Assembly (NCBI GenBank): GCA_051047955.1
Contig: JBPGPT010000028.1
Span: forward strand, 124,001 to 188,000
DNA: 64,000 nt
Direction: 5' to 3'
Origin: Cystobasidiomycetes sp. EMM_F5
Lineage: Eukaryota
In this document: positions 15,474 to 52,900 of the stretch, one piece after another
Layout of the letters: each line of letters begins with the position of its first letter
Position numbering within the stretch: the first letter of the stretch is position 1
Translations under genes and position numbers: made by a program
Notes under the pieces: generated by a model
Databases searched by the model: none
Told to the model about the DNA's origin: nothing
Seen by the model: only the letters and a program-made list of their open reading frames with translations

Positions 15474-18400
15474 CTATGGAGACATGTCCATATCATCGCT
15501 TTCAGGGTCCACCCTCCTCACGCCAGTGTCCTCAGCCTGGTCAGGACCGTTGTCGGCCACTGCTGGCTGAATGGCAGCACCCTCTTCGATGATGAGCTGG
15601 GCTGGAACGGAGGCGCTACCGGCTCCTTCCACCTCACTGTCGGGTATTGCTACGGTCTTTCCAGCGGCATCGTCCTGACCAGAAATTGCATCTTCAACGA
15701 TGTTGTCCTCATCGATGTTCTCCGCCACGGGGTCAGCCTCATCTGCGGACTGCAACCACTCCTCCCAGGCTTCCTTTCTCTGTGTACGCGCTTGTATTGC
15801 TTTTTCTTCATTAGGTTCTCCCAAAGTCGCCCGATAGATGACTTCCTCGGTGCCTTTGAGATACGATATTCTGTGTGACCCAGATATGCGTATCGCTAGC
15901 GTTGAACAGCCTTGGATCCTGCTTTGTTCTGCCTCCGTTTGTGATGTCAGAATTCTGCGATTTCTCGCGAGTAATGGTGCTTGAACTTCGTGGTCTAGCC
16001 CCTCCGTCGGCTGATCTAATGCGTAGGCGTCCACATAGTTGGCCCACTGGCTCGCAACGTTGTCATTGGCAGTTTCGATGGTAGGGTCGTCTGGGCCTAG
16101 TAACTGTATGGTCATGGATTTAGCAGAAGGTATCCATTCGATTCGGAACAAGTTCTCCTCGAGGCCGATGATCTCCTCGCAAGCATGCCGATACACCATT
16201 TGACCTCGTGCAGACGTCCGGGGTTGCTGCCTTTCCGCAGTAAGCAAGTCGATCAGCTGATGCGCGCGGGCGTCATGATTCAAAGAGTGTATCTAGTTGC
16301 GTTGTCCCATCAGTAAGGTGTCCTGGATCATTAGAAAGATCGATTGCATGCTTACGTGCTTAATGATGGAAGAAATTACGATTCCTACAGTGAAGAAGGG
16401 ATACGCCTTGATGCCCCACATGTACCGTAGATGTTCTTCAAAAGTATGCACGTCGACCTCTCCGTCAAAGAACTTTTCGCACATCTCCAGCATGTATTCG
16501 TAGAAAGTCGAACCGCGCGGTACGCCTTCTTCGTCAATATGCGGAACCGGGGTCGTGATGCCTAGCTTGACAGCAAAAGGACTTAATCGCGCAGGCGGGT
16601 TGCTGGCGGCCAGATCTGCTGCCAGCTGCTTGAGGGTTGCCAAGCGGTGATATAACAAGTGAAATAGGCGCATGAAGGAATAGAAGCCTTGGTGGCCGAA
16701 GAATACGTATCGACCACCGGTGGATTGGCTGAGGTCGCCTTGCTGCTGAGCTGAAGGAGAAGCATCTCCGCGATCTGGCGAAGGTAATGCTGTTTGTTTC
16801 TGCGTTGTCTTTGGCACTTCCTCCGATACAGGTGCTGGATAGGGTACAGGCCCGATAGGAATCCAAGTAGCTTCTTCAAGGCTAGGCAAGCCCGTGTCAG
16901 GCTTCTCCTGTTCACCATCGGTAGCCGTATCGCCTTTGCCATCATCGCCCTTGGCTCCATTGGCTGCGGCCGAGGTGAGGAGTTTCTTTCGCAAATCTCG
17001 CTTTGCGCCACCCTTTTTGCCGGCGAGAGGGACACTGCTATCGCTCGCGCTTCCCCCTCCGGCATCACTCAAGGCGCCTATTGCGTCTTCTTGCTCACTT
17101 TCTACGCCATTCTCCACTACTTCGGCGGCATCCTGATCGAAAACAATCGCTGGCGCAATATTCGATTCGACGTCAGTCTCGTCGATATTGAACAACAGAG
17201 GTACCAGCCTCCTCAGTGTTGCTTCGATTGATGCGCGGTCCTTCGAAGTATGCGAGGGAGTCGCTCGGTCGAGGAAAGACAAGATGAGCTTCATGACGTC
17301 AAAGATCACGCTTGTATCGTCCATTTGCATCTCGAATTGATGCGAAGGTCTCAGCGAGGTCTCCGAGATCATGATATCATCAGGGTTGTCTTTTTCTGAG
17401 CGGACAGCGATACGTTTCTGTTGCGCTTCTCGTTTGAGGGTTTCGATTTCCGAAAGCAGATGTTTGGAGGTGATGGTCTTCTTGTCGTTGGCTTTGAATG
17501 TCATGCCTTGGTGCTAGAAAAATATGATTGATGCAGATTTCGTGATCAGAGACAGCTGAACATGCGTTCAATACGACAACTTACGTCAAGACTCCGATAG
17601 AAATTCTTCGCGTCAACATCTCTCCAAACGCGATTCCATTCCCTCAGTGCCTTTCGCCACTCCTCGTCTTTTTGCTTTAGTCTCGCCAGAATAATGGGTG
17701 CTGCTATTGCCGGCGTCTCGTACAGTGCACCGAGCGCCTCCACTCCCTGATCCTTGCCGTAGATCTTCTTGATTGTCCGCTCGTAGAAGCTGCTCGATGG
17801 ACCCCCGAGACCTGGCTTCAGTCTAAAGGTAGAGCGCTCTTCGGCCGACATGAGCGAGATACGCGCAACGATCGGCTCGAGCAAGGCAATAGAACGAATG
17901 TTGGAATCGATGTTGTAGTCGTACCAGTGGCGCTGTCACGGGTAATACTCAGCACGGTCACGCCGGCTGAATCAAATGCTCTGTACGAACCTCCTGTTCG
18001 CTGCTTGCCAAGGCATCCTCGTAAGGATTCTTGCGATGCGCTCCTGAGCCTTCTGACGCCCAAGTAGCGAAAGCGACCCAGTCGTCATTTAGCACACTCC
18101 AGCAGAGAGCGTCGCGACCTGAACATGCAAGTCCCTTGGCCTCGCCGTACGGCAGCTTGCGATACGATGGTCCATAGCTCTTGAGGGCTGATAATTCGAC
18201 GCGTTCTCGATCCAAGGCGGGACTGAAGAGTCAGAAACATGTATCAGGAAGTGCTCAAGGGATGTGAGAACAGCACACTTACGCATTATCGATTGGCCAC
18301 TCTTCACCGGGCACGAAACCGTCCTGCTCCCCTACAAACTCCCTAAACGAGCCAAATATTTCGTCCGACCCGCCAATGTACAGAAAGGCCTTTTCGAGCA

Positions 18401-21400
18401 GCGTAGGCATATCGAGGAGTTCTTGGACGAACATGTTGAGCATCTTGAGGAATTCGTGATATGTCGGCTTGTCATCAATGTACTTTTTGATGCGGTCAAA
18501 CAGCACAAACTCATCAGTCGTCACGAGTGGCTGGGCTTGCCCGCGAGGTCCGTGCGGTCTCGGGAAAGCTGGCAATGTGACTGGCTGCAGGAAGGGCTGT
18601 GGCGCGAGGAGCTGTTGACCGTTAGCAGCCGCAGAGCCAGCGCCTGGCAATGCACCTGACGCGTTGACCGGTATACCGTTGCTATAGCCATTCATGCCCG
18701 GATGCAGAGGTGCGGCGACTAAATCTTCCATTTCGTCGTCCTGTCCGGCATGCCCAAGCTTGCCCTTCTTTGCCTGTTTTATACAGCTTCAGCGCGCTTC
18801 CTTTCATGAGCTGCATAGACCTTTGCAACCTACCCTAGCTTTATCTTGAGCACTTGCAACACTCTGTCCTGTATTCTGACGTTTCTTGCTCCTTCCAGAC
18901 GGGGGCTGCCATTCTTCATCAGCGTACTTTTCCTGAAACTGATGCTGAGAGGACGACGGCTGTTGATTGTAATAGCCTTGCTGAGTCATTCCCTGCGTCG
19001 TTGAATGCTGGTTGTGACCTTGTTCTCTATCCGTGTATGCAGAACTTCCAGGAATGCCACTCGTTCGTCGTGACGCTGCTGCTGCCGCAGCTGCCGCTTC
19101 TTTCTCTCTCACAGCTTGTCGTGCGTGAGCGGCATAAGCAGCAGCACGCTCTTCCTCATCCGATAATTCCTCTGGGAAATCAGTAGGTTGCATCCACGCA
19201 CCGCGGTAAGGCTGGATATGGTTCGCCGGTAGTCGCCCGTCTCTCTGTTTCACTTGACGGGCTGTAGATGCTCCGGCTGGTCTGTGTGGGGCAGCTCGTG
19301 AGTACGGCTGCGACTGCTCAACCCGACTTGCAGCAGGGTGGTGAGCAGAGGAAGCGGGCCCATGTTGATGATGCGCTTGTGCATGCTGCCCCTGAAGAGC
19401 ACTGTGCTGGGCCTGTGTAGTTCCGCTTGGGCCTACCATCGGACCCACGCCAAAAAGCGAGGTAGTTGACCCAATGCGGGCGTTCCTGTTCGCGGGCTGT
19501 GATGCCATGGTTTGAGTTGTCGCATGTGGGGCAGTATGAGGGGTTGCCACCGAAGCCTGTGTCGGACCTTGACCTACGCTTCCTGCAGCGGCCGTACCAT
19601 CTGGCGCGCCCGATTCTTGTGAATTGCTGTTATCCGGCAAAAACTCTTTAAACTCTTCCAACAAGTCCGGGGCGTCCTGAAAGAGGATTGTAACCTGGGC
19701 ATAGACATCCTGAATCGCTCGCTGCTCCTTTTGGTACGTCTGTAGAATCTCAAGAAAGGCCTTGTACGTATCTGGACGTCGATTGAAGCGATGCTTGATC
19801 TTGTTTACGAAATTGATGGCGTGGTTGAATTCGGCGGGTTGGCGTTGGGCGATGTTGGAGGCGTTACTGGGTGCGCCAGTTCCTGCAGTGTTGGACCCAG
19901 CAGTACCGGTTGGCGTACCTGTTGCACTTCCAGCTGTACCCGTGACAGGCGCGGCAGACGCCGAACGGACTGCCGTTCCGGTTGAGACATGGGAAGGAAT
20001 GGCATTGTTGGAGCCTGGTCTACTGCCCGCACCGGGGTGTGAGGATGCAGTCGCGTCCGCTCTTGTCGTAGTAGCTTGGTTGAGTGCGCCAGAGGATGCA
20101 CTGGTACTTGCTGCAGCTGTCGTGCCGGGCGCTGGCCGTCTAGCTGCATTCAAAGAAGATTGTGTGGTCGTACTCTGTGCAGCAGAAGGGACACTTCCAG
20201 CTTGAGTTCTCGCGTTCCCAACGACCGGATGTGAAGGAATGGCAGCAGAGACGTTGACTCCACCTCCCAGCGGTGTCGGCGTGCCCCTCTGTGCACTACT
20301 CGCATTTCCACCAGGATTTGCATTCGCAGCCGCAGCCGAAGCAGCCGCTACAGACTGCTGCCACCAGTTTGAGCTGCCGCCTAGGTGAGGTCCGTTCGTG
20401 GCTGGGGCAGGCGGCATGTGCGCATTCACACTCCGTAAATCTCGACGAGTTACCCCTGTCGGAGTCGTTACTGTAATCAGACCTGCTTCTGCGGGATCCA
20501 TGGAACAGTCTATCCGGAATCCTGGAGGGAGGAAGGTATTGAAGCCTGTGGGAGAGCATGAGGGTAGATGGGACAGAGCAGAGCATCGAGGGAGGGTAAA
20601 TGAGAAGAACGAGGAGAGCGTCATCGGAATTAACGATGTGGGAGAGCATGAGGGTAAATGGGGAATGTGGAGAACGTCGTGCGAGAGATCAAGGGTAGAT
20701 GTAAAGAAGAGCAGAGCATCGAGGGAGGGTGAATGAGAAGAGCGAGGGGAGCGTCATCGGAGATAACAAGCATAACGAGAAGACAAAACCAAGATGTCAC
20801 ATTCGCGTTTGCATTATACATGGGCAATGTATCGCATACCGGATCCGGTGGCGGCGGTAAGCGAGTTGAATGGAATGATATCAAAGAGAGGGAGTATTGC
20901 CATCAGCATGCATCTCTACACCGCGTGCTGCCGTCAATAGTCTCCACACCCACCCTGGATGAGCGTCGGATGGCCTTGAAAGAGGGTGGATACCCGGTCA
21001 ATGACGCCTGGCGTGTCGATGCTGCAAGCACGAGCGGTACATTGTCAGAGTAATCAGCACGTCGTCAGTCGGCAGTACGCCGTGTCGTGGTATTCAGCTG
21101 CCCACTTTTGCGTCTTGAAGTCCTTCCTGTATGCATCAAGGACACCCCGATCCAAATGCAAATGCAATATACCATCAGCCTCGCTACACTCTCCACCTCC
21201 AATCCACATCCCCACCCACATTATATCCAAGAACCTGTTGTATATGCCCGGGTTTCGTGTAAACTGATTCTTGACCTGGTCGAGGTAGCTGAGGGCTGCA
21301 TGAAACAATATGGATATGCCGTGAGCTGATTGTAATTGTAATTACAATAGTCTGCCTCTCTTTGTTAAATACCCACCATCCTTGACGTTCAATGGCCTGT

Positions 21401-21643: not shown

Positions 21644-23689
21644 ATGCCTCAGATTATGATTGAAAAGGACGCAGAGAAGCTCAGCACGGACACTCGTAAA
21701 CAGCCCAGGAAGCAGTGGGCTCATCGGGCAGCAGTCGGGGTAGTATCGCTCCTCACCGCAGCGTACCATCTATCGCACTATGGCTATGGCACTCGCTCAT
21801 CATCACTTATATCGCCCCTCGAAGCGACGACATGTCCAGCTCAGGTGGATCCATTGATCCCATCGTTGCCTTTCACTATCGACTTGACGGCATACAGAAA
21901 CTACTCGGCCTCGCTCCTGTCGCAAGCAGTACAGCACCGCACAGTCTCGTACGACGACAACGGGAGTGTCCAAGACGATGACCGCTGGGAGCCCTTCTTT
22001 GGATTCCACGAATGGCTCGGGGAGACCTTTAAAGACGTCCTCCAGAACGAGGCAGTCGCCGTGACAAAGGTCAACACGCTCGGATTTCTCACGGAATGGA
22101 GGGGAAGCGACGAGGGTTTGAAACCGTTGATGCTCATGTCGCATTTGGATGTAGTGCCGGTCGAGGAGAAAACCGTGGATAGATGGACACATCCCCCGTT
22201 CAGTGGGCACAACGACGGCAAGTACATTTGGGGACGAGGAGCCGCAGATGACAAGACGTGAGGTATTCATTCGTCGACCACTCAAGGTTTGTGCTGATGG
22301 TTCAACGCAGCCTGCTCGTCGCACAATACGAAGCACTCTCACTCCTCCTCAAAGCAGGCTTCACACCCCGCCGAACAATCATTCTCGCACACGGGTTCGA
22401 CGAAGAAGAAGTAAATGCTCGTCAAGGCGCAGGCGAACTATCCAAATACCTCCTCGAAAAATACGGACAAGACAGCATGCTCCTCATCGTCGACGAGGGT
22501 TCGTCAGCCGTCGAGCTGTTTGGTACGGCATTCGCTGCACCTGCAACCAGCGAGAAGGGCTACCTCGACGTCCAGATTACAGTAGCAACGCCAGGAGGGC
22601 ATTCTTCAGTTCCCCCTCCACACTCGGGAATCGGGATAATGGCACAGGTCGTCAATGCCGTAGAAGCGAATCCATACGACGTGAGCTTTGATGGCCCGAC
22701 AGACCCGATTGCACAGTTTGTCATGTGCGCCAAAGAACACGGAAAGAGTATACCGAAGGAATGGCAGAAGGCATTGGGTGCAGCCAGTGACAAGGCGTGT
22801 GGTTGGCACGCGGTTGGTAAAGGCAGACACGGTAAACACGACAAGCATGGAAAGCATGGAAAGCACGGCAAGCACGGAAAGAGAGGTAAAGGCGTAAACT
22901 GGAATAGTGTAACCAATCTGTTCGCCGCAAGGAGTCTGGCAAGTCGTGGTGAGCTGGTATCCATCAAGCGCGTCGGGGTTACTCAAGCTGATCGCACTTA
23001 CTCGTGACGTGCCCAGCACTCATCACTACCACACAAGCAGTGGATGTCATTCGAGGCGGAGTAAAGGTCAACGCCTTGCCAGAACACGTCACTCTTCTCA
23101 TGTAAGCTGCAACAGCGTGTCACGCTTGTAATCTCGCTGACGCAATCTGCCTTTCAACAGCAACCATCGCATCGCCTTTTCATCCTCTGTAGCAGCCACG
23201 CAGGAGCATCTTTCAAAGGTCATTGCCCCAGTCGCCAAGAAGCATGCTCTTTCATTCTACCCCTTCAATGCTTCGAGCGCGTCCAATACAAGCCTAGGAA
23301 ACGCGTACATCAAGATTGACGTCTTCGGTATCCCTCTTGAACCCGCTCCTCGTTCTCCGACCAGCGGTCCAGTATGGGATCTATTTGCAGGAACGATCAG
23401 ACACGTCCATCGATTACCGAGCATCAATACATTGTCAGAAGGCGGAGAACTAGGCGAACCGTACATCGTCACGCCATTCGCTTCAACCGGCAACACTGAT
23501 ACCAAAGTTTATCATGGTTTGTCGAAGCACATCTACAGATACATGGGAAGCCCGTTGCCCGAGGATAAAGGAGAAGATGGATTGAGTAACGCTCACACGG
23601 TCAATGAGAAGGCGTCAATCAGTGCACACATCAAGATTGTCGAGTGGATCTATACGCTAGTGCAGAACGCTGATACGTTTGAGCAGTAA
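21644..23689 (+). CDS. CPS1: Gly-Xaa carboxypeptidase S-like M20 metallopeptidase (paralog B, 3 introns)
   Basis: TM anchor, CPAQV, SHLDVVP, WGRGAADDK, GFDEE, VDEG, EKGYLD, GGHSS, GGVKVNALPE, GNTDT and HTVNE. Carries a (GKH)n insert. Confidence 0.9.
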
Positions 23690-45159: not shown

Positions 45160-48100
45160 ATGGCCAGTACAGCTTCCGACACCCAGCCCACCTACATCTT
45201 CCGGCTGTCGCGGTACTCGGATGACGGGGCACGGCTGTCGAAGCGAAAGGTGGGTGTGGTGTATATGCAGGGTATAGCGTTGACAGTGCTGATGCGATAT
45301 CGCAACAGTACGGCTTCACCGCAAAGACTGCCTCGTACAAGGACCTCAACTCGGTCGTGTTTGATGTGAGATGGTGACTGCGCAGTCGGGTCGTGCAGAG
45401 GCTGACGGTGGTTTACTGACACTCGTATCCTGACTAACATTGTCTCCTGCTCACAATACGCACCTTAATCTCATTATATCCCACGCCCTCCGCTTATCGT
45501 CCTCCGTGTGGCGATGCTCTCCGTCAAACTATCAACGGACGTCATTGGATGCCTGTCGATATACAGGGCATCATTACCCGCGCAGAGAACACATTCACCC
45601 TCGAAAAGGGGACTTACAACCTCATCCTCGTAAAGCCGTCTGACTCGAGTACCGCATCGAGCACGGAGATTGGCTTATCCAAATTGCCATCTCTAGACGA
45701 GGCGGAACAGTTTCTGTGCCATGCTTTCGACTCGTACAGTGACTTCAAACTACACCGCAAGAGTATTGCAAAGCTGCTGCCTGATGAAAAGGGTAGGAGA
45801 GTGGTCAACTTGTCCATCGTGACGCGGAAAGTGAAGCAGATGTTGGACGAGAGGGCAGTAAATGGTCGCGGTGTAGACGTCCCAAAAGAAGCGGACAGTA
45901 GTGTAGAGACGCAAGCTGCGGCTGGAGAAGGAATCCCACTCTGCATCGTCAAGGGCTATCCAGCTATCTCTGCGACCGAGGACCCCTCAGTCTCGCAGCT
46001 CCATCCAACTGAGCCGCTTCACTCTGTCGTCAACGACAATCTCGCAGAAATGCGAATGGAGGCGGAGCGAACACGAGATGAAACTGCTCGTATTGCAAAA
46101 CTGGTCTCGCAACACGTCGAGTCAGCCCCTTCGACCAACGTCAAGGGTGATGACGACAGCGTCAAAGGCAAAGACGTTCCTTTGCAGTCCCAAGAGAAGG
46201 ACAAGGCGGGTGTACATGATGCCATTACTAAATTCGCAAAGGAGTACATCGACATTAGCGGACTCATTCACGGTGTAAACTCGCAAGCACACGCCGCTTT
46301 TACAAGCAAGACCAATGCGCTCGTCGAGTCTCTTTCAAATGATGTCGAGACGGTAGTCGATGCTGTCAAGACGTTAGCCAACGTCCCGGCCGAAGTCACA
46401 AAGCCAGTGTTCGAGTCACTTGGTGAAGCGCTCCATGACGCTTCTCAGCGTGTCGAAGCTGCTCGAACAAATGCCTGTGCGCCCTTTAAGGCTCGATCAA
46501 CTGGATGTACGCCATTCAAGCCGTCTGGCCCAACTCTGGCGGCTCCACAGCCCTCTGCTGCTCCTTCGCCTAAAGCAAATGAGAAGAGCGACGATGACCT
46601 TGCGAATGCCATGTCTGCTGCTGCAGACAAGTTCGAGTATCGCGACACTACATCACGCGGTCTTGCAACTCCACATCGATTCTCTGCTGGTCCCTCACAG
46701 AAGGGCGCAAGTTTCTTCAATGGTCGTCCTGCCGACTCAAAGTCGCCAAGGGACACATCGCAGTACGGCCATGCTTTCGACTCGTATGCGAAGCGGTACT
46801 CGCCATTTGCATTGCTCGGGCCTGGGTCGCAAATGTTGCACGAGCGGCCTGTTGAGCCTCCCACTTTCCCATGTGAAGCGGAACCGCCTTGCTCTGGCCT
46901 TTTCGCAACAAAGGCTGAGCTCGTTAAACACATGATTTTCCATCCCAAGATTGAGCAAGATGCGGCCAGTGGCGAAAGGCCTCAGCAAGCCCCAGCAGCT
47001 TGCACGAATGCTTCTCGCAGCGTGTTCAGCCCACCGACGAAGGCCGACAAGGCTGGTTTGCAAGAAAGTTCTACCTGCGAGGCTGCGCAAGCGATACAAG
47101 ATCGAATGACCTTCCGATTCGGCCAGCCACGCAGGGAGTTGGAGCAGACGTCACGCGAAGAGTTGCGAGAGGCGATTGCTGCATGGCGAGACCACTATCG
47201 CTCGCGTGAAAGTCTGCGTACGTCTCATCGCAAACCGCCCCCACCACCACCTCGTCATGCTTCGCATGGTGAAAGGCCGGGACATGCACTTTGCTCGCAC
47301 TTTAGTGGAGCAACGCACGCGCTGCCTCCGTTTGGAGGCACAGCACTCCCTCCAGCACCTCGACCGATGTTTACGTTTGATACAGCAAAGTCTGATTGGA
47401 CCCCCAAGGCCGGTCCATGGAGTGCACCCGAAGCTGCCGCTGCTTTCCCACCCGTTAAGTTTGTGGCCAGTGCCGGCGCAATAACAAACAACAAGCATGT
47501 CGCGCTCAAGCAATCGCTGGATCGCTTTGTCGCTGACTTTAACGCTACATTGGGTGACATGTTTGGTGCACCCGCTGATGCTGGTGTGGAAGCGGCGAGC
47601 GAGAAGCAGGACTCGCGAGTCAGCGCACATCTTGGTGCTTCGCCTGTCTATGAAGGCGCTGCGCAGAAGGAAGGCTCGTCGACCACTGCTCCAGTAAAAG
47701 TAAAGGATGCAGGAGCGAGCGCTACACAGAAGGCTGAGAAGCACAAGCATCGCGCGACTTGTGATATGTGTAACGAGTGGATTGTTGGCATCCGTCACAA
47801 GTGTGTAGAATGCCCTGATTGGGATTGCTGCGAGAGCTGCTACACTCAAGTTCGGGACGCGCACCCGCAACACACATTTGCAAAGATCCACACGACTTCT
47901 GATCTCGGCAGCGTCATCAAGATGGATGTCAAGCACTACGGTATCTATTGTGATGGATGCAACAAGCCCATTACCGGTATCCGGTACAAGTGCACCCACA
48001 CCGCATGCTCCGACTTTGATCTCTGCGCGCAATGTGAGGCAGATCCAGTATCGTATGCTGTATCGCGCAAGATTGGAAATCATGAATTCAACTCGCATAT

Positions 48101-49452
48101 CATGCTTAAGATCCGCCAGCCCGTTGGTCGCTTTACTGGACGCTTCAGACAGGGAGCTGGCAATGGCCTCGTACAGGCTATTGGAAATGCACAGGCGTTC
48201 TTGGCACAGTACAGTGCTTCATGCGGCAAGAATAGCGTGTCGACATCAACACCGGACTCGCCACAGACTGTGGATGCTCAGACGCAGACTAGCATCAAGC
48301 AGGAGAAGCCATCTAAGCGAGAAGAGAAGGAGGAGGACGCTGGAAACATCGCGATCGCCGATGAAGCTCAAATCAATCCTGCATCTGAGAAAGACAAGTT
48401 TTCCAAAGTGTCGAGCCCCAAGAACAACACCCTGAATGACTTTTTCCGAGAATTGTTCAAGCCAGTATCTACCGCCGTTAAGGAGGTACAAGCTGAAAGC
48501 GTCATTGCTGTCTCCAACGAGCCAGATATCGTCTCGAACGAGCCAACCATTGCATCGGACGCAAAGTCAAACGAGGCAGCGGCCATAACTGACGAGATCA
48601 AGGTCGCTGCTATTGCGGAACCAGAGACGAATTCTGCAAATTCAGCACCGGCTGACAGCGATGTTGCAAAATTGGCAGAGTACGACGCCACCTGGATAGC
48701 AGTGAGTGCATAGACCTCTGATAAGCGAGCTCGAGCTGACTTGCGATGTACGCTTCTCCTAGGACGTCACATATGTAGACGGTGTCTCTGTCGCACCTGG
48801 AACAGTCTTCAACAAGATCTGGCGCGTCAAGAGCTCGGGTCGAACGGCGTGGCCTGCTGGAACTCGACTCCTCTGTGTTGGCGGGTTTGGCGCGCCGACT
48901 CATTCCGGCTCAGCTGCCGAAAGAGCCACTGTCTCGTATGAGGTTCAGTCTGCACGAGCAGGTGAAGAAGTCGATGTCATTGCACATGACATTACCGCTC
49001 CGGAAGTCGCTGGTCGCTTCCTGAGCTACTACCGCTTCGTCACTGCGGACGGCACTCGCTTTGGCGATCGCCTCTGGATTGACATTGAGGTAGTACAGAA
49101 CGATGGGGAACGTGCTATGGCCGCTAGCCGCGAGTCGTCGGAGCATTCCTCGTTGAACAGCTCGTCGGTGATTACCCCGTCTGTTCGAGTCAAGGGTGCT
49201 ACTCCGCAAGCAGACTCGCCATTGGCCGCAGCAGCCATGCTCCAATCTCGTACGCAGAGTACGGAGCCGACGACTGTATCGGCCGTCACATCGCCACGTT
49301 CGGTTCTTAGCGAACTCGTAGATGCCGAGTATGTCAGCTCTGCACACTCTGCCGTCGAAGGACCCGACGATGAGGACGATGACTTTGTCTTACTCTCCGA
49401 TGAGGACGATGACGACTTTGCTGATATTGCGAGCGTCTCGAGCTCGACGTAG
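45160..49452 (+). CDS. NBR1: NBR1-like autophagy receptor (ZZ-ZZ-FW domains, C-terminal AIM/LIR)
   Basis: Two ZZ fingers (HRATCDMC..IRHKCVECPDWDCC; HYGIYCDGC..IRYKCTH..DFDLCAQC), an FW domain (DVTYVDG..FNKIWRV..AWP..SYYRF..GTRFGDRLWIDI) and an acidic tail with DDDFVLL and DDDFADI. Confidence 0.85.
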
Positions 49453-49525: not shown

Positions 49526-49914
49526 GGGTGTTCTTCTTTGTTCAGACAAGACTTACTAGCGCTCAATATACAAGAAGAACGAAAAGACTGCCAAGCCATT
49601 GCAAGATATTTTTTGATGACGACGATAACTTCATGCTAAATCTACAAAAAACAATGATACCTTTTCCTTGAGTGCCCGCTGTAGCCAGACACAGACTAGC
49701 TGTCTCGTTGTAGAATAATACTGATACTTCTCCTTTGGTTGCTGCTTGTGACTATGAATTGCCGGCTTACACGTTGACTTTCAACCAACGCCATGCGACG
49801 ATATCGATACCCGACCACGATGCCCTGAGACAAGGCCACACTACCTCGACGTCCAAGTCGATTAAAGAGCAGCCGCTGGGTCGATTAGCCAGTCCAATAT
49901 CGTCCATTGTCAAT

Positions 49915-52900
49915 ATGGACCTCTGGCAGCCAGCGGACGCGGGAGACTCGCCGTACTCGATGAGCAGCCCGGGGAATAATGCTACAGCGACGGGGACATC
50001 CTCGTCGTCGTCTTCAGCAGCAGCACCGTCCACGGCAGTCGCAGCCCGAGCGAGCGGGAGAAGACACGCAAAGTTCTTTGGAGGATATGGGACGGAGGAG
50101 TCGAGCAACGACGACGACGAGGACGAGGAAGAAGATAACGAGATGCTGTCCCGGTTTGGGATAGCGCAGGGAGGGGAGCGCGAGTCCTCGACAGCGCTCG
50201 GGCTGGACCTGTGGTCAATTGACGAGGTGAAGCCCAGTATTGGCGCACGCAGTGCACTGCCAGGCTCAGACGACGAGGACGAGATTCAAAAGACGATAGA
50301 CCAAGTGCGGCGGTCAATGATGGACTCGTCGGCGACGTCGCAGCACTTTGCTGCCAACGACGACGGAATGGACTTGGAAGACTTTCTCGGGTCTGTGATT
50401 GACAAGCTACGACGTGACGCTGGTCGTGCGGCTGACTTGCAAAGTGTGCTCAGCGCAAACACCCGCCTGCAAGACTCGTCGCTGCCTTCAAACGCCGACG
50501 CTCTCGACACCCAGTCCCTCTTTGGCAGCAACGCCAGATCTCTGCCATCGAGCTCACGGTCACTGCTGACTGACCCACTGACTCGAGATCTGAATCTCGC
50601 TGCACCGCTAAACGATATTCTGTCGCATCGTCCCGGTCCTGGAACTGCGGGAGCCCCAGTTTCGATCGCCCCGCACCAGACGTTCCCTGCGGCAAACATG
50701 TTTACATCGAGCAGCGGAGCTGCGCGCAATGCACCTTCATACTCTCAACCACTGTCACCGTCGGCAGTCATGTCTATTCTGTCTGGGAGTACGCCAGCTG
50801 GACTTGCCGCAGCTGGTCCATTCAATCATACCCACTTGGCTGCCTCCGCCTACCCTGCCGAGTTTCCGCAAATCAAACGAGAACAGCAGGCATTGCATTC
50901 TGCGTCTTTTCTGCAGCCTCACGCATCAACGAGCTCGTCGTCTAGATCATCCTCCCAGTCGGGTCCCTCACTCCCTAACAGCACACAACCTGGCTTAGCG
51001 ACACTCCCTGCTCTGTCCCCGCAGCCCAACGTCGGCTCATTTCCGCCTAGCGCGTATCAGACTCAGTCGAATTATACCTCGCCAGAGAGCGATGCTGACG
51101 GGCCGAACACCGCTTCATTCCAACAACATAGTCGCAGCACGTCTGGCTCGAATTATGACCTTACGGCACCTTCTGGCAAGGCATCCAGTAGTACGAGTAC
51201 GACTCGTGCTCATACTGCAAAGAATTCGCCTCCAGGCAGTGTCAAACACTCGAGATCGACTTCGTCGCTTGAAGGCATGAATCGAATGGTGCCATTGTCC
51301 AGCATGACAGCATACGATCACAGCCGCAGCTCTGACAATATTTCGGCGATAGCATCGCAGGGGCAGCAAGTTCCGCCTCAGGCTGGCCCTTCCGCAGCCC
51401 CCGATAAGCACACGCAACAGGCGTCATGCGAAAGTAGCAGTCTAGTGCGAGCTGTCTATCGCGAACCTGCCGCATCTCCTGAAGCACAAATGGTACTACA
51501 GGAAGGCCAATGCCAGCTCGTCGTGCTCGGGTTGCCCGACGAGGGAGCCAGGTCTCGCGTAGAAACCCAAGTCAAGATTGGCTTGACCCTCCTCCGATCC
51601 CGATTCATTCCAAGTGCTCATCCGGCGGCATCTGCCCCGGCTGCGCACGCACCCCGAGCAATGAGCTTTCGTGATCCTCGTGGTGCACTCACAGCAGAAG
51701 CTGATGCCCACTTTGAAAAGGTCGGTAGCTGGAGGTATCTGTGCTTACCAACTGTATCGAGTGTCAAACGGAACGCGAAAAAGCACCATCGCGCTGACAT
51801 ACCGTCCGAACAAGTTTTATATGCCGATATCAAGGTCGTCTCTGCATCGCATCCGAGCAAGCAGATTTCTGTATGCACAAATTGCCAGCAGAGGGAGTTT
51901 AAGCGATTGCAGCGCAAAACGCAGAACAGAAATAAACCAGCAGACGAGGTGGAAGAGGCGGGGAGGGAAGACGAGATTGGCATGTCAGATGAGGAGCTCG
52001 CGAAACGTAAAATTGTACTCTTCAATTGCGGACAGTACCTCGACTTTAACAATGGCGAAGCTATCATACCAACCCGAATTACCTGTTACTGCAGGCATCA
52101 CAAGGAGAAGTACGGTTTCAAGTGAGGTTCGATTTTCCCCTCATTTTGAGTCCCGTGACTGACGGATTGACCGGAATCGCAGCATCGTGTATACCTTGCG
52201 GGACCATCGGGACCGCTTCGTTGCGACAGCAATGTCCCCTCCCATCTTCCTTACCGACGATCATAAGGCACGACCCACCGTTCCCGATGACATTGGTATG
52301 CAACACATGTCACCATCGCTGGTCAATATCGCCAACGGTCACAATGTTGCCCGAGATTCTCGTGCGAGCAGCGCGTGGACGTCGGCAGCTTCCAGTGCCG
52401 GCAATTCTCAGGCGGGCTCGGAGGTCTCGTCAGCTGCCTCTTCTCGACGTCCTTCACGTGGCAACAGTGTTGAAGCCTTGAACCAAGAGGACACCAAACC
52501 CTCGAATCCCACTAATGCCCTCACTGCATCTGCTCTTCAGCCGCCGCCGACAGCCCGGTCTGCAACAAGGAAGGAACGATCTAGCAAGCCTTATAATCTA
52601 GACTCGCGGCCTCTCAAAGGGAAGCGGGTCCCATCGATGAATAGGCTTAACAGCTTTACAATGACACCACTAAATCTGTCGGCGCCAGGGTCGCCAAGGC
52701 AGGGGGCGCAATCTCCACCCGCTCCAGCATCAGTAGGACTGACAACAGACTACCTATCGCTTACGACCGAACCGCTAGAAGACTACGCCAAGTCGATCAG
52801 CGGCGGCACAACTCTGGCAACTATCCAGGATTATGCCAGTCCCAACTCTTCAGTGTCTGCGCCATCTACGCCTGGTGCTGGCCTCGATGTATATACTTCT

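Follow-up and report, generated by a model that had tools for sequence, protein, structure and literature searches.

A putative distant branch point and an AG-free tail in a lineage-restricted SIN3 intron of a Cystobasidiomycetes fungus

The SIN3 corepressor gene of Cystobasidiomycetes sp. EMM_F5 carries, within its PAH1 domain, a 408-nt intron (i4; 20546..20953, minus strand) that is best read as a distant branch point followed by an AG-exclusion zone, an arrangement known from animals and budding yeasts. This reading, which is drawn from the sequence, is given a probability of roughly 0.55. The spliceosome would assemble across a 5' unit of normal size, formed by the donor GTGGGT, 50 nt, the branch motif GCTGATGG and an adjoining pyrimidine tract. 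Once the first catalytic step is complete, the first AG downstream, at a distance of 357 nt, would serve as the 3' splice site. Because a new AG within this interval would be chosen in its place and disrupt the reading frame, selection would hold the tail free of AG. The tail would have been enlarged from a short ancestral one, partly through tandem duplication of its own pyrimidine-rich end, since a duplicated AG-free sequence would stay AG-free. The window analysed here is a contiguous stretch of 64,000 nt, and all coordinates refer to it.

Gene model and intron boundaries

The host gene is identified as the SIN3 corepressor by its PAH and HDAC-interaction domains (PF02671, PF08295 and PF16879 in its homologues), and the PAH1 sequence can be read across four introns. 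Exon 4 (20954..21021, minus strand) encodes PAH1 sequence and the first base of a Gly codon. Exon 5 (18834..20545, minus strand), assigned by homology and followed by a donor GTAGGT at 18833, encodes the remainder of PAH1, a linker and PAH2; an in-frame ATG lies 14 codons into this exon. Between the two, i4 is a phase 1 intron that runs from the 5' splice site GTGGGT (20948..20953) to the 3' splice site CAG (20546..20548), which contains the first AG past 20914. On the minus strand its flanks read ...CTC ATC CAG G at the donor 20953 and ...CCCACAG followed by GC TTC AAT at 20546, and its removal joins LIQG to FNTFLPPG. In a tblastn comparison of ten SIN3 homologues with the window, seven have contiguous query residues across i4, the match ending at 20952 and the next one starting at 20546 or 20549, while the remaining three lack a match on one side. 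The boundaries 20953-20546 of the preliminary description are thus fixed by homology. The donor is also of the type common to the other three PAH1 introns.

Judged by these features, i4 is a genuine spliceosomal intron within the PAH1 domain, and one that is lineage-restricted. No intron was found at its site in any of 76 other SIN3 loci (metagenomes), and no other copy of i4 in the 64-kb window or in 80 loci of other fungi. A stwintron or other nested intron was rejected: the AGs of i4 fall either within offsets 10-39 or at its 3' end, and nested splicing is impossible because there is no internal AG acceptor. A common origin with neighbouring introns was considered for the similar 5' ends of i2 and i4 and dropped, as local alignment beyond the donor was no better than with shuffled sequences. 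An introner-like stable fold was not found in the whole intron (z -0.36). A search of Rfam with 20300-21300 gave no match at E values up to 1, and the DNA run X1 returned three short pieces, none of them on i4.

The reference for intron length, branch scores and branch spacing is a set of 34 short introns of the window (47-112 nt, median 59.5), obtained by a stricter scan and curated by eye, on which the branch matrix was built. Since 26 of the 34 were picked by eye from the scan output, partly for their intron-like look, the set favours canonical branch motifs. The output of an earlier automatic finder, 225 introns of which most were false, was set aside. Against this median, i4 does have the 6-7 times usual length that had been attributed to it. 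A search for long introns with a conventional layout turned up a single weak candidate of 116 nt, which favours a distant branch in i4.

Branch motifs and the AG-free zone

The sole top-scoring branch motif of i4 is GCTGATGG (20900..20907, minus strand), with a matrix score of 6.0, equal to the median of the 34 window introns; the runners-up in i4 reach 4.8. Its GCTGAT core (20907-20902) had already been singled out in the preliminary description as the best motif, about 50 nt from the donor, and this ranking holds. The predicted branch A, 20903, is at offset 50 of the intron. It lies 50 nt from the donor, within the usual range (median 39, range 19-86 in the 34 introns), and 11-12 nt past the last upstream AG; 357 nt separate it from the terminal G of the 3' splice site. 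Just 3' of the motif follows the pyrimidine tract CTCCCTCTCTTT (20883..20894, minus strand).

The AGs of i4 are confined to offsets 10, 24, 36 and 38, all four within the purine-rich stretch between donor and branch motif (20914..20947, minus strand), and to the terminal offset 406. The 366 nt in between (20548..20913, minus strand; 69% pyrimidine) hold no AG, as the preliminary description had stated. The resulting gap of 368 nt between successive AGs is exceeded by none of the 16 dinucleotides across the 64 kb of the window, the level at which the AG-gap and exclusion-zone statistics were computed; the next longest AG gaps measure 213 and 166 nt, and the longest for any other dinucleotide, TA, 303 nt. 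Composition-matched shuffles, named as a check in the preliminary description, rarely give such a run: zero AG was seen in 4 of 100,000 mononucleotide shuffles of the zone (8.3 AG expected). Under a first-order Markov model of the pre-branch segments of 37 short introns, none of 20,000 stretches of 366 nt was AG-free.

Not all of this zone is independent evidence. The 3' 220 nt of i4 consist of stacked direct repeats of its own pyrimidine-rich end, and because these roughly 220 nt are a CT-rich repeat, with an AG expectation of merely 3.1, which counts against the distant-branch reading, the independent AG evidence rests mostly on the 146-nt unique part (20768..20913, minus strand). This part has an ordinary composition and no AG where 5.7 are expected (P about 0.003), alongside 6 GA, 6 AA and 4 GG. 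The depletion is thus specific to AG and counts in favour of a distant branch. A similar signature is present in ordinary introns: in 37 of them, the number of AGs ahead of the branch matches expectation (59 observed, 65.9 expected), and behind it AG is depleted fourfold (7 versus 28.4), with GA, AA and GG normal. As this depletion is restricted to the downstream side, the i4 tail resembles post-branch sequence. In 33 of the 34 short introns the interval that begins 8 nt past the best branch A and runs up to the 3' splice site holds no AG, and the largest branch-to-3' splice site spacing of the set is 48 nt.

An AG-free stretch of at least 150 nt after an equally strong branch motif was met in 2 of 170 cases in the window and in 0 of 737 in control DNA of other fungi. 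A third AG-free gap after a branch-like motif (51869-51998, minus strand) was set aside as a chance case, since a long coding ORF occupies the opposite strand. That 116 AG-free nt can follow a strong motif by chance, opposite a coding ORF, counts against the distant-branch reading.

Growth of the tail and a probable second case

The repeats of the tail comprise an upstream copy (20635..20767, minus strand), found by repeat search and by blastn of i4 on itself, and a downstream copy (20547..20634, minus strand), found by repeat search. The upstream copy holds the 60-nt element D1 (20708-20767) and two copies of the 26-nt element D2 (20678-20703 and 20637-20662), and the downstream copy holds D1 at 20575-20634 and D2 at 20547-20572. 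The downstream elements are 92% (D1) and 96% (D2) identical to the other copy. The upstream D2 copies terminate in CACG and CACA(T), the last one in CACA(G). Tandem Repeats Finder reported nothing within i4, though dispersed direct repeats are present. As far as the sequence can tell, these direct repeats show growth inside the i4 tail.

Two relatives bear on where the growth took place. [quoted passage not shown] Both introns are deduced from protein read-through, in which the third base of GCN is not readable. Since the two calls imply short orthologous introns with GCNGAY, the early motif of i4 would occupy the ancestral branch position, and i4 would have grown downstream of the branch.

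A second intron with the anatomy of i4 is probable in a ZZ-finger gene on the plus strand. This candidate, N2 (45366..45566), has 201 nt, phase 0 and the ends GTGAGA...ACAG, and it follows exon 1 (45160-45249), an ordinary 59-nt intron (45250..45308; GTGGGT...GCTGATGC, then 16 nt to CAG) and exon 2 (45309-45365). Its branch motif GCTGACGG (45401..45408, plus strand; score 6.8) would place the branch A at 45405, so that 39 nt separate it from the donor and 161 nt from the 3' AG. The AGs of N2 lie at offsets 3, 18, 31 and 33, followed by 164 nt without AG, where 6.2 are expected and 40 of 100,000 shuffles have none. Its composition is ordinary and repeats are absent; no branch-like site scoring above 2 occurs within 93 nt of its 3' splice site, and no sequence is common to N2 and i4. 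ZZ fingers are the sole Pfam matches in the host protein. No homologue of its N-terminal 420 aa was found, an exhaustive search returning only the low-complexity match P0122, and an Atlas search gave no usable match. It is possible that the gene instead starts at the ATG at 45550 and has no intron there.

The preliminary description had proposed long-range scanning or structure-assisted selection of the 3' splice site, which might serve to regulate this corepressor. Its long-range component, a distant branch with an AG-exclusion zone, is strengthened by the AG-specific depletion in the unique tail, the post-branch-only depletion in ordinary introns, N2 and the ORF calls of the relatives. The structural component was not supported. 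Folding energy is no better than that of shuffles for the whole intron (z -0.36), and the branch-to-3' splice site segment has no stable stem beyond composition (z -0.35; 33 of 100 shuffles fold as well). The predicted effective branch-to-3' splice site distance of 11 nt, compared with 33.8 +/- 20.3 nt in shuffles, is as short in 25 of 200 shuffles and is therefore within their range.

A broader rule for this lineage can be put forward tentatively. The 5' splice site may determine where the branch is placed (approximately 40-50 nt away), after which the first AG may be taken at any distance and without a specific RNA structure. All long introns would on this view amount to short ones extended by an AG-free tail, of 48, 161 and 357 nt in the window. 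Under this rule introns would lengthen only downstream of the branch, by inserted or duplicated AG-free sequence.

Alternative readings and known systems

The main alternative, possible if somewhat doubtful, is that the productive branch is proximal to the 3' splice site and that GCTGATGG is a relic of a short ancestral intron. The branch would then be at GATGAC (20625-20620), a site already named in the preliminary description, within GATGACGC (20618..20625, minus strand), whose A at 20621 is 75 nt away from the 3' AG, or at a weak CTCAT site. In that case the AG-free zone would reflect the CT-rich duplicated tail as well as selection, past or still acting, against cryptic 3' splice sites near the relic branch. 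The score of GATGACGC, 4.8, is within the range of real introns and beats the best site in 8 of the 34 reference introns, which counts against the distant-branch reading. The motif is kept in both repeat copies (the counterpart A is at 20754), and a long stretch of pyrimidines comes after it. A longer donor-to-branch spacing also exists in the window, where one 112-nt intron branches 86 nt from the donor, and the low AG expectation of the repeated 220 nt (3.1) agrees with a proximal branch. Long fungal introns normally branch near the 3' end, and in S. pombe and C. neoformans a long branch-to-3' splice site spacing is reported to be both uncommon and inefficient (PMC9508853, 10.1101/224170). 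However, the 75 nt required exceed the largest reference spacing of 48 nt, and CCTCATGC, at 13 nt, scores 1.0, lower than every reference intron. With a proximal branch, the 279 nt located 5' of the last repeat copy become pre-branch sequence, in which about 7.5 AG (5.69 + 1.84) are expected, and ordinary introns are not depleted of AG ahead of their branch. In N2 a proximal site of this kind is lacking. A strong early site with its own pyrimidine tract would moreover compete for the spliceosome, and it persists though one mutation would remove it.

Use of both branch regions is improbable. Intermediates branched at 20903 would often fail the second step and be discarded, the tail would reduce or adjust the output of SIN3, and the proximal branch would give the mRNA. 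Spliceosome profiling is reported to show that long introns can branch early and that intermediates are discarded through Prp43 in a manner tied to branch-to-3' splice site distance (10.1101/224170), and i4 does have a strong early and a fair late site. The exclusion of AG from the whole tail is nevertheless left unexplained unless early-branched intermediates complete splicing, and sequence alone cannot separate this scheme from the other readings. Very improbable is an AG-free zone that has no role in splicing and results from chance and skewed composition, or from a CT-rich DNA element such as an internal promoter tract before exon 5. The zone is 69% pyrimidine and partly repeated, it was picked out of many windows as extreme, and AG-free runs of 100-213 nt occur outside introns elsewhere in the window. 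Chance is opposed by the shuffles (4 of 100,000 AG-free), by AG-specific depletion where composition is ordinary and by the similar build of N2. The zone also begins 11 nt before the best branch A and stops exactly at the 3' splice site, and nothing points to a transcript start.

The distant-branch reading has its closest parallel in exon 11 of human PTB, where the AG-exclusion zone measures 381 nt, mutation placed the branch at -351 and a good site at -51 goes unused (Gooding et al. 2006, PMC1431707). As in the human distant-branch exons described there, i4 has a high-scoring branch motif at the 5' end of the zone, an adjacent pyrimidine tract and a 3' splice site that is the first AG (PMC1431707). 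Applied to i4, the animal-type features are an AG-free run of at least 100 nt up to the 3' splice site (366 nt), a high-scoring branch near its 5' end (GCTGATGG, 6.0) and the pyrimidine tract CTCCCTCTCTTT beside it at 20894-20883. The geometry is almost identical to that of PTB exon 11, with the i4 branch predicted from sequence. Unlike the human system, the host is a fungus whose introns of about 60 nt are recognised across the intron, and the predicted i4 branch lies at the normal short-intron distance from the donor.

Among fungi, the statement in the preliminary description that branch-to-3' splice site distances are normally tens of nt needs qualification, as budding yeasts reach up to 166 nt (Saccharomyces), 471 nt (C. 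glabrata) and 185 nt (K. lactis) (PMC3239191). The COF1 and UBC13 introns, with a distance far above the norm, resemble the one predicted for i4 and are likewise fungal (Gahura et al. 2011, PMC3239191). In that type a stable stem shortens the distance and hides intervening AGs (PMC3239191), whereas i4 has zero intervening AGs and a predicted structure like that of shuffles. In the short-intron fungi S. pombe and C. neoformans, long introns (>150 nt) also branch unusually far from the 3' splice site (Burke et al., 10.1101/224170), as if intron size were gauged before the first step. Those events, seen on spliceosomes, are extra and possibly unproductive (10.1101/224170); in i4 the early site is the sole canonical one, and the downstream sequence looks selected to allow its use. 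The S. pombe introns that depend on Sde2, Cactin and Tls1 likewise have a 3' splice site beyond the usual branch distance, and in them an AG close to the branch is favoured over a more distant AG (PMC9508853). What is called distant there is about 20-40 nt, compared with 161 and 357 nt here; a spacing of at least 30 nt is reported for about 40 of about 5250 S. pombe introns and needs extra factors, which counts against the distant-branch reading (PMC9508853).

If a distant branch is indeed used in i4, the fungal spliceosome would do what has been documented so far in animals. The case would be informative, as an essential corepressor gene has its sole canonical branch motif 357 nt from the 3' splice site, followed by an AG-free tail that looks selected and has no special structure. 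How the 3' splice site is found after the first step is still debated, with scanning, diffusion and structure as the proposed mechanisms, and long branch-to-3' splice site spacing in fungi is regarded as inefficient or as dependent on a bridging stem. i4 would offer a simple test system, in which an inserted AG is either used or not. Gene finders that expect a 3'-proximal branch may miss or misplace such introns. The growth of the tail suggests a possible route by which a short intron may lengthen without losing function, and if the tentative rule for the lineage were true, the long-range selection of the first AG by a fungus would be demonstrated in nature and on the scale of a whole genome.

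Boundaries of the SIN3 intron and its AG-free zone

Four introns, at 21376-21296, 21219-21127, 21105-21022 and 20953-20546, split the PAH1 region of SIN3 (about 70 codons, window 21376-20546, minus strand). Each has a donor of the form GTGGG[TC]; those of the five other SIN3 introns are GTAGGT, GTAAGT, GTTCGT, GTAAGT and GTAAGC. The last PAH1 intron, i4, is bounded on the minus strand by ...CTC ATC CAG G/GTGGGT at 20953 and ...CCCACAG/GC TTC AAT at 20546, and excision of its 408 nt joins LIQG to FNTFLPPG through a split Gly codon. When ten SIN3 homologues were compared with the window by tblastn, in seven cases one match stopped at 20952 and the next began at 20546 or 20549, the query residues running on without a break; in the other three, one of the two flanks was missing.

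Apart from the AG at its 3' end, i4 has this dinucleotide only at offsets 10, 24, 36 and 38. Consequently, positions 20913-20548 (366 nt) are AG-free, as the preliminary description had claimed, and the GCTGAT motif that it placed at 20907-20902 is present there. The AG-to-AG gap of 368 nt is the longest in the window for any of the 16 dinucleotides; the next AG gaps measure 213 and 166 nt. The zone also proved exceptional against composition-matched shuffles, a comparison named in that description, being AG-free in 4 of 100,000 mononucleotide shuffles (8.3 AG expected). A first-order model built from pre-branch intron sequence gave AG-free stretches of this length in 0 of 20,000 cases. The second-longest minus-strand AG-free run (213 nt, 22687-22899) lies in a plus-strand coding region that contains an HGK-repeat tract (HGKHGKHGKHGKHGKRGKG); it is low-complexity coding sequence and no intron.

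The 3' 220 nt of i4 consist of direct repeats, a point absent from the earlier account: two copies of a 60-nt unit (92% identity) and three of a 26-nt unit (96% and 69%). All duplicate the pyrimidine-rich end of the intron itself, the upstream copies ending in CACA-T or CACG and the last in CACA-G. This part is rich in CT, and its expected AG number is just 3.1. What independently supports AG exclusion is the 146-nt unique part adjoining the branch motif, where composition is ordinary and AG is absent against 5.7 expected, with GA found 6, AA 6 and GG 4 times.

Branch candidates and reference introns

The reference set comprises 34 short introns, all from the window. Eight come from SIN3 and are set by reading frame and homology, while 26 were chosen by eye from the output of a search for a donor and an acceptor flanked by coding sequence, and are thus partly biased to a canonical look. 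Their length is 47-112 nt (median 59.5) and their branch matrix has the consensus G-C-T-G/A-A-C/T. The median distance is 39 nt (19-86) from donor to branch A and 19 nt (8-48) from branch A to 3' AG; the AG-free stretch ahead of the 3' splice site (3'SS) has a median of 28 nt and a maximum of 84. In 33 of the 34, no AG occurs beyond 8 nt 3' of the best branch A until the 3'SS. Across 37 introns, AG on the donor side of the branch is at expectation (59 observed, 65.9 expected), and downstream of the branch it is fourfold depleted (7 against 28.4), GA, AA and GG being normal. Because this depletion is confined to the downstream side, the i4 tail bears a post-branch signature, not a pre-branch one. 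A search for conventional long introns, with the branch near the 3' end, gave a single weak candidate of 116 nt.

In i4 the best candidate is GCTGATGG (branch A 20903), whose score of 6.0 equals the median of real introns; it lies 50 nt from the donor and 357 nt from the 3' AG, and is followed by the pyrimidine tract CTCCCTCTCTTT. GATGACGC scores 4.8 both at branch A 20621 (75 nt to the 3' AG) and in its repeat copy at 20754 (208 nt). CCTCATGC, 13 nt from the 3' AG, scores 1.0, and all remaining sites score at most 2.2. The branch octamer GCTGATGG recurs in the neighboring intron i2 (21219-21127, minus strand, 93 nt), 44 nt from the donor and 48 nt from the 3' AG; no other short intron has so long a tail. 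Intron i2 also contains a small CAAATG tandem repeat (2.5 copies, 21153-21167).

A probable second case, folding and relatives

Both strands of the window hold 18 AG-free gaps of at least 95 nt, and three of them start at most 15 nt ahead of a strong branch motif: that of i4, a plus-strand gap of 166 nt and one of 128 nt. The 128-nt gap (51869-51998, minus strand), starting 13 nt before the branch-like motif TCTGACAT, was rejected as an intron tail: it lies opposite the long ORF 49714-52125 of the plus strand, so its resemblance to i4 is put down to chance, and it is useful as a control. The 166-nt gap ends at 45566, inside a plus-strand gene (45160-48713) that has about 1100 codons and encodes two ZZ-type zinc fingers. 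The predicted gene model has a start codon at 45160, a well-formed 59-nt intron 1 (45250-45308), a 19-codon exon 2 (45309-45365; among the top 2.2% of stop-free windows by coding score) and intron N2 (45366-45566; donor GTGAGA, acceptor ACAG), in frame with a 1091-codon ORF. In N2, AG occurs at offsets 3, 18, 31 and 33, followed by 164 nt without it, where 6.2 are expected and GA, AA and GG number 7, 6 and 5; this stretch is AG-free in 40 of 100,000 shuffles. The distances from its branch motif GCTGACGG (score 6.8) are 39 nt to the donor and 161 nt to the 3' AG, and the last 93 nt ahead of the 3'SS hold no branch site scoring above 2. N2 contains no repeats and has no likeness to the i4 sequence. 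It is probably a second case of the same anatomy, and i2 could be an intermediate in a series of tails of 48, 161 and 357 nt. The gene may instead begin at ATG 45550, without N2; no homologue of the protein's N-terminus was found in a word-indexed search (first 420 residues) or an exhaustive one (first 200). Within the window, 2 of 170 equally strong branch motifs lead into at least 150 nt without AG, compared with 0 of 737 in a control set of 834 kb from other fungi.

Structure-assisted choice of the 3'SS, proposed in the preliminary description, is unsupported, since folding is no better than in shuffles for the whole of i4 (z -0.36; 37 of 100 shuffles equal) or its branch-to-3'SS segment (z -0.35; 33 of 100). 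In the minimum-energy fold, the effective exterior distance between branch and 3'SS is 11 nt in i4 (shuffles 33.8 +/- 20.3; 25 of 200 as short) and 8 nt in N2 (19.9 +/- 12.7; 40 of 200). Generic folding may thus bring the two sites together, and these comparisons give no sign of a selected bridging structure in either intron. Rfam returned no matches.

A scan of metagenome contigs yielded 80 SIN3 loci, of which 76 contain FNTFLPPG. It is preceded in frame by L-x-x-G in all 76, and none has an intron at the i4 site. PAH1 is unbroken from FLDIMKDF onward in 38 of the 76, and about half (37) are broken upstream of IDTPGV, the site of intron i3. Among named proteins, those nearest in the HDAC-interaction exon (17585-17932, minus strand) come from basidiomycetes (Phaffia, Malassezia, Phenoliferia, Rhodotorula, Ustilago and Puccinia; 63-69% identity), and only six proteins are closer (78-81%). 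Judged by these identities, EMM_F5 is a member of a poorly sampled lineage. Two ORF calls from closer relatives, P0002 and P0004, read through the i4 site. P0002 begins MIQGEW...LADTRTPGFNTF, which, against LIQG/FNTF, amounts to 19 additional in-frame codons. At the DNA level these would be a 57-nt intron starting G/GT GAR TGG and carrying GCN GAY, with 42 nt between the donor and its A and 14 nt between that A and the 3' AG; the leading M is probably an alternative start codon picked by the gene caller. P0004 reads ...NADWSSTHTGFNTF, which, from the protein sequence, puts GCN GAY 20 nt from the 3' AG. Should this reading of the proteins hold, a relative would have a short orthologous intron; the early i4 motif would therefore stand at the ancestral branch position, and i4 would have grown between branch and 3'SS.

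Competing readings and known systems

The best-supported reading, with a probability of roughly 0.55, is that the branch point of i4 is distant and accompanied by an AG-exclusion zone. In this view the spliceosome would assemble on a normal donor-branch unit and take the first downstream AG, 357 nt away, as the 3'SS. Selection would purge AGs arising in between, and the tail could lengthen by duplication of AG-free sequence. The main rival, a less probable one, places the productive branch at GATGAC, 75 nt from the 3'SS, and makes the early motif a relic; however, it must account for about 7.5 expected AGs missing from what would be pre-branch sequence, and N2 has no counterpart of such a proximal site. 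A mixed model with partly unproductive early branching is possible but has a low probability. On spliceosomes of S. pombe and C. neoformans, early branching has been observed in long introns and was judged possibly unproductive past 50 nt (bioRxiv 10.1101/224170). That the zone reflects chance or a DNA-level element is unlikely. The idea of the preliminary description that the intron may regulate this corepressor is a hypothesis.

The geometry of i4 is that of human distant-branch-point exons: PTB exon 11 has a 381-nt exclusion zone, an essential branch at -351 and a good site at -51 that is unused (PMC1431707). Distant branch points are also recorded in budding yeasts, the distance reaching 471 nt in C. 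glabrata, but there they rely on stems that also mask intervening AGs, unlike i4 (PMC3239191). In S. pombe, spacings of at least 30 nt are rare and dependent on Sde2, Cactin and Tls1 (PMC9508853), and the first-AG rule appears as a working assumption in the methods of a lariat sequencing study (PMC4787815). Literature searches covering main texts outside subscription journals turned up no description of an intron with an AG-exclusion zone in basidiomycetes or filamentous fungi. If confirmed, i4 would represent an animal-type arrangement in a fungus with introns of about 60 nt.
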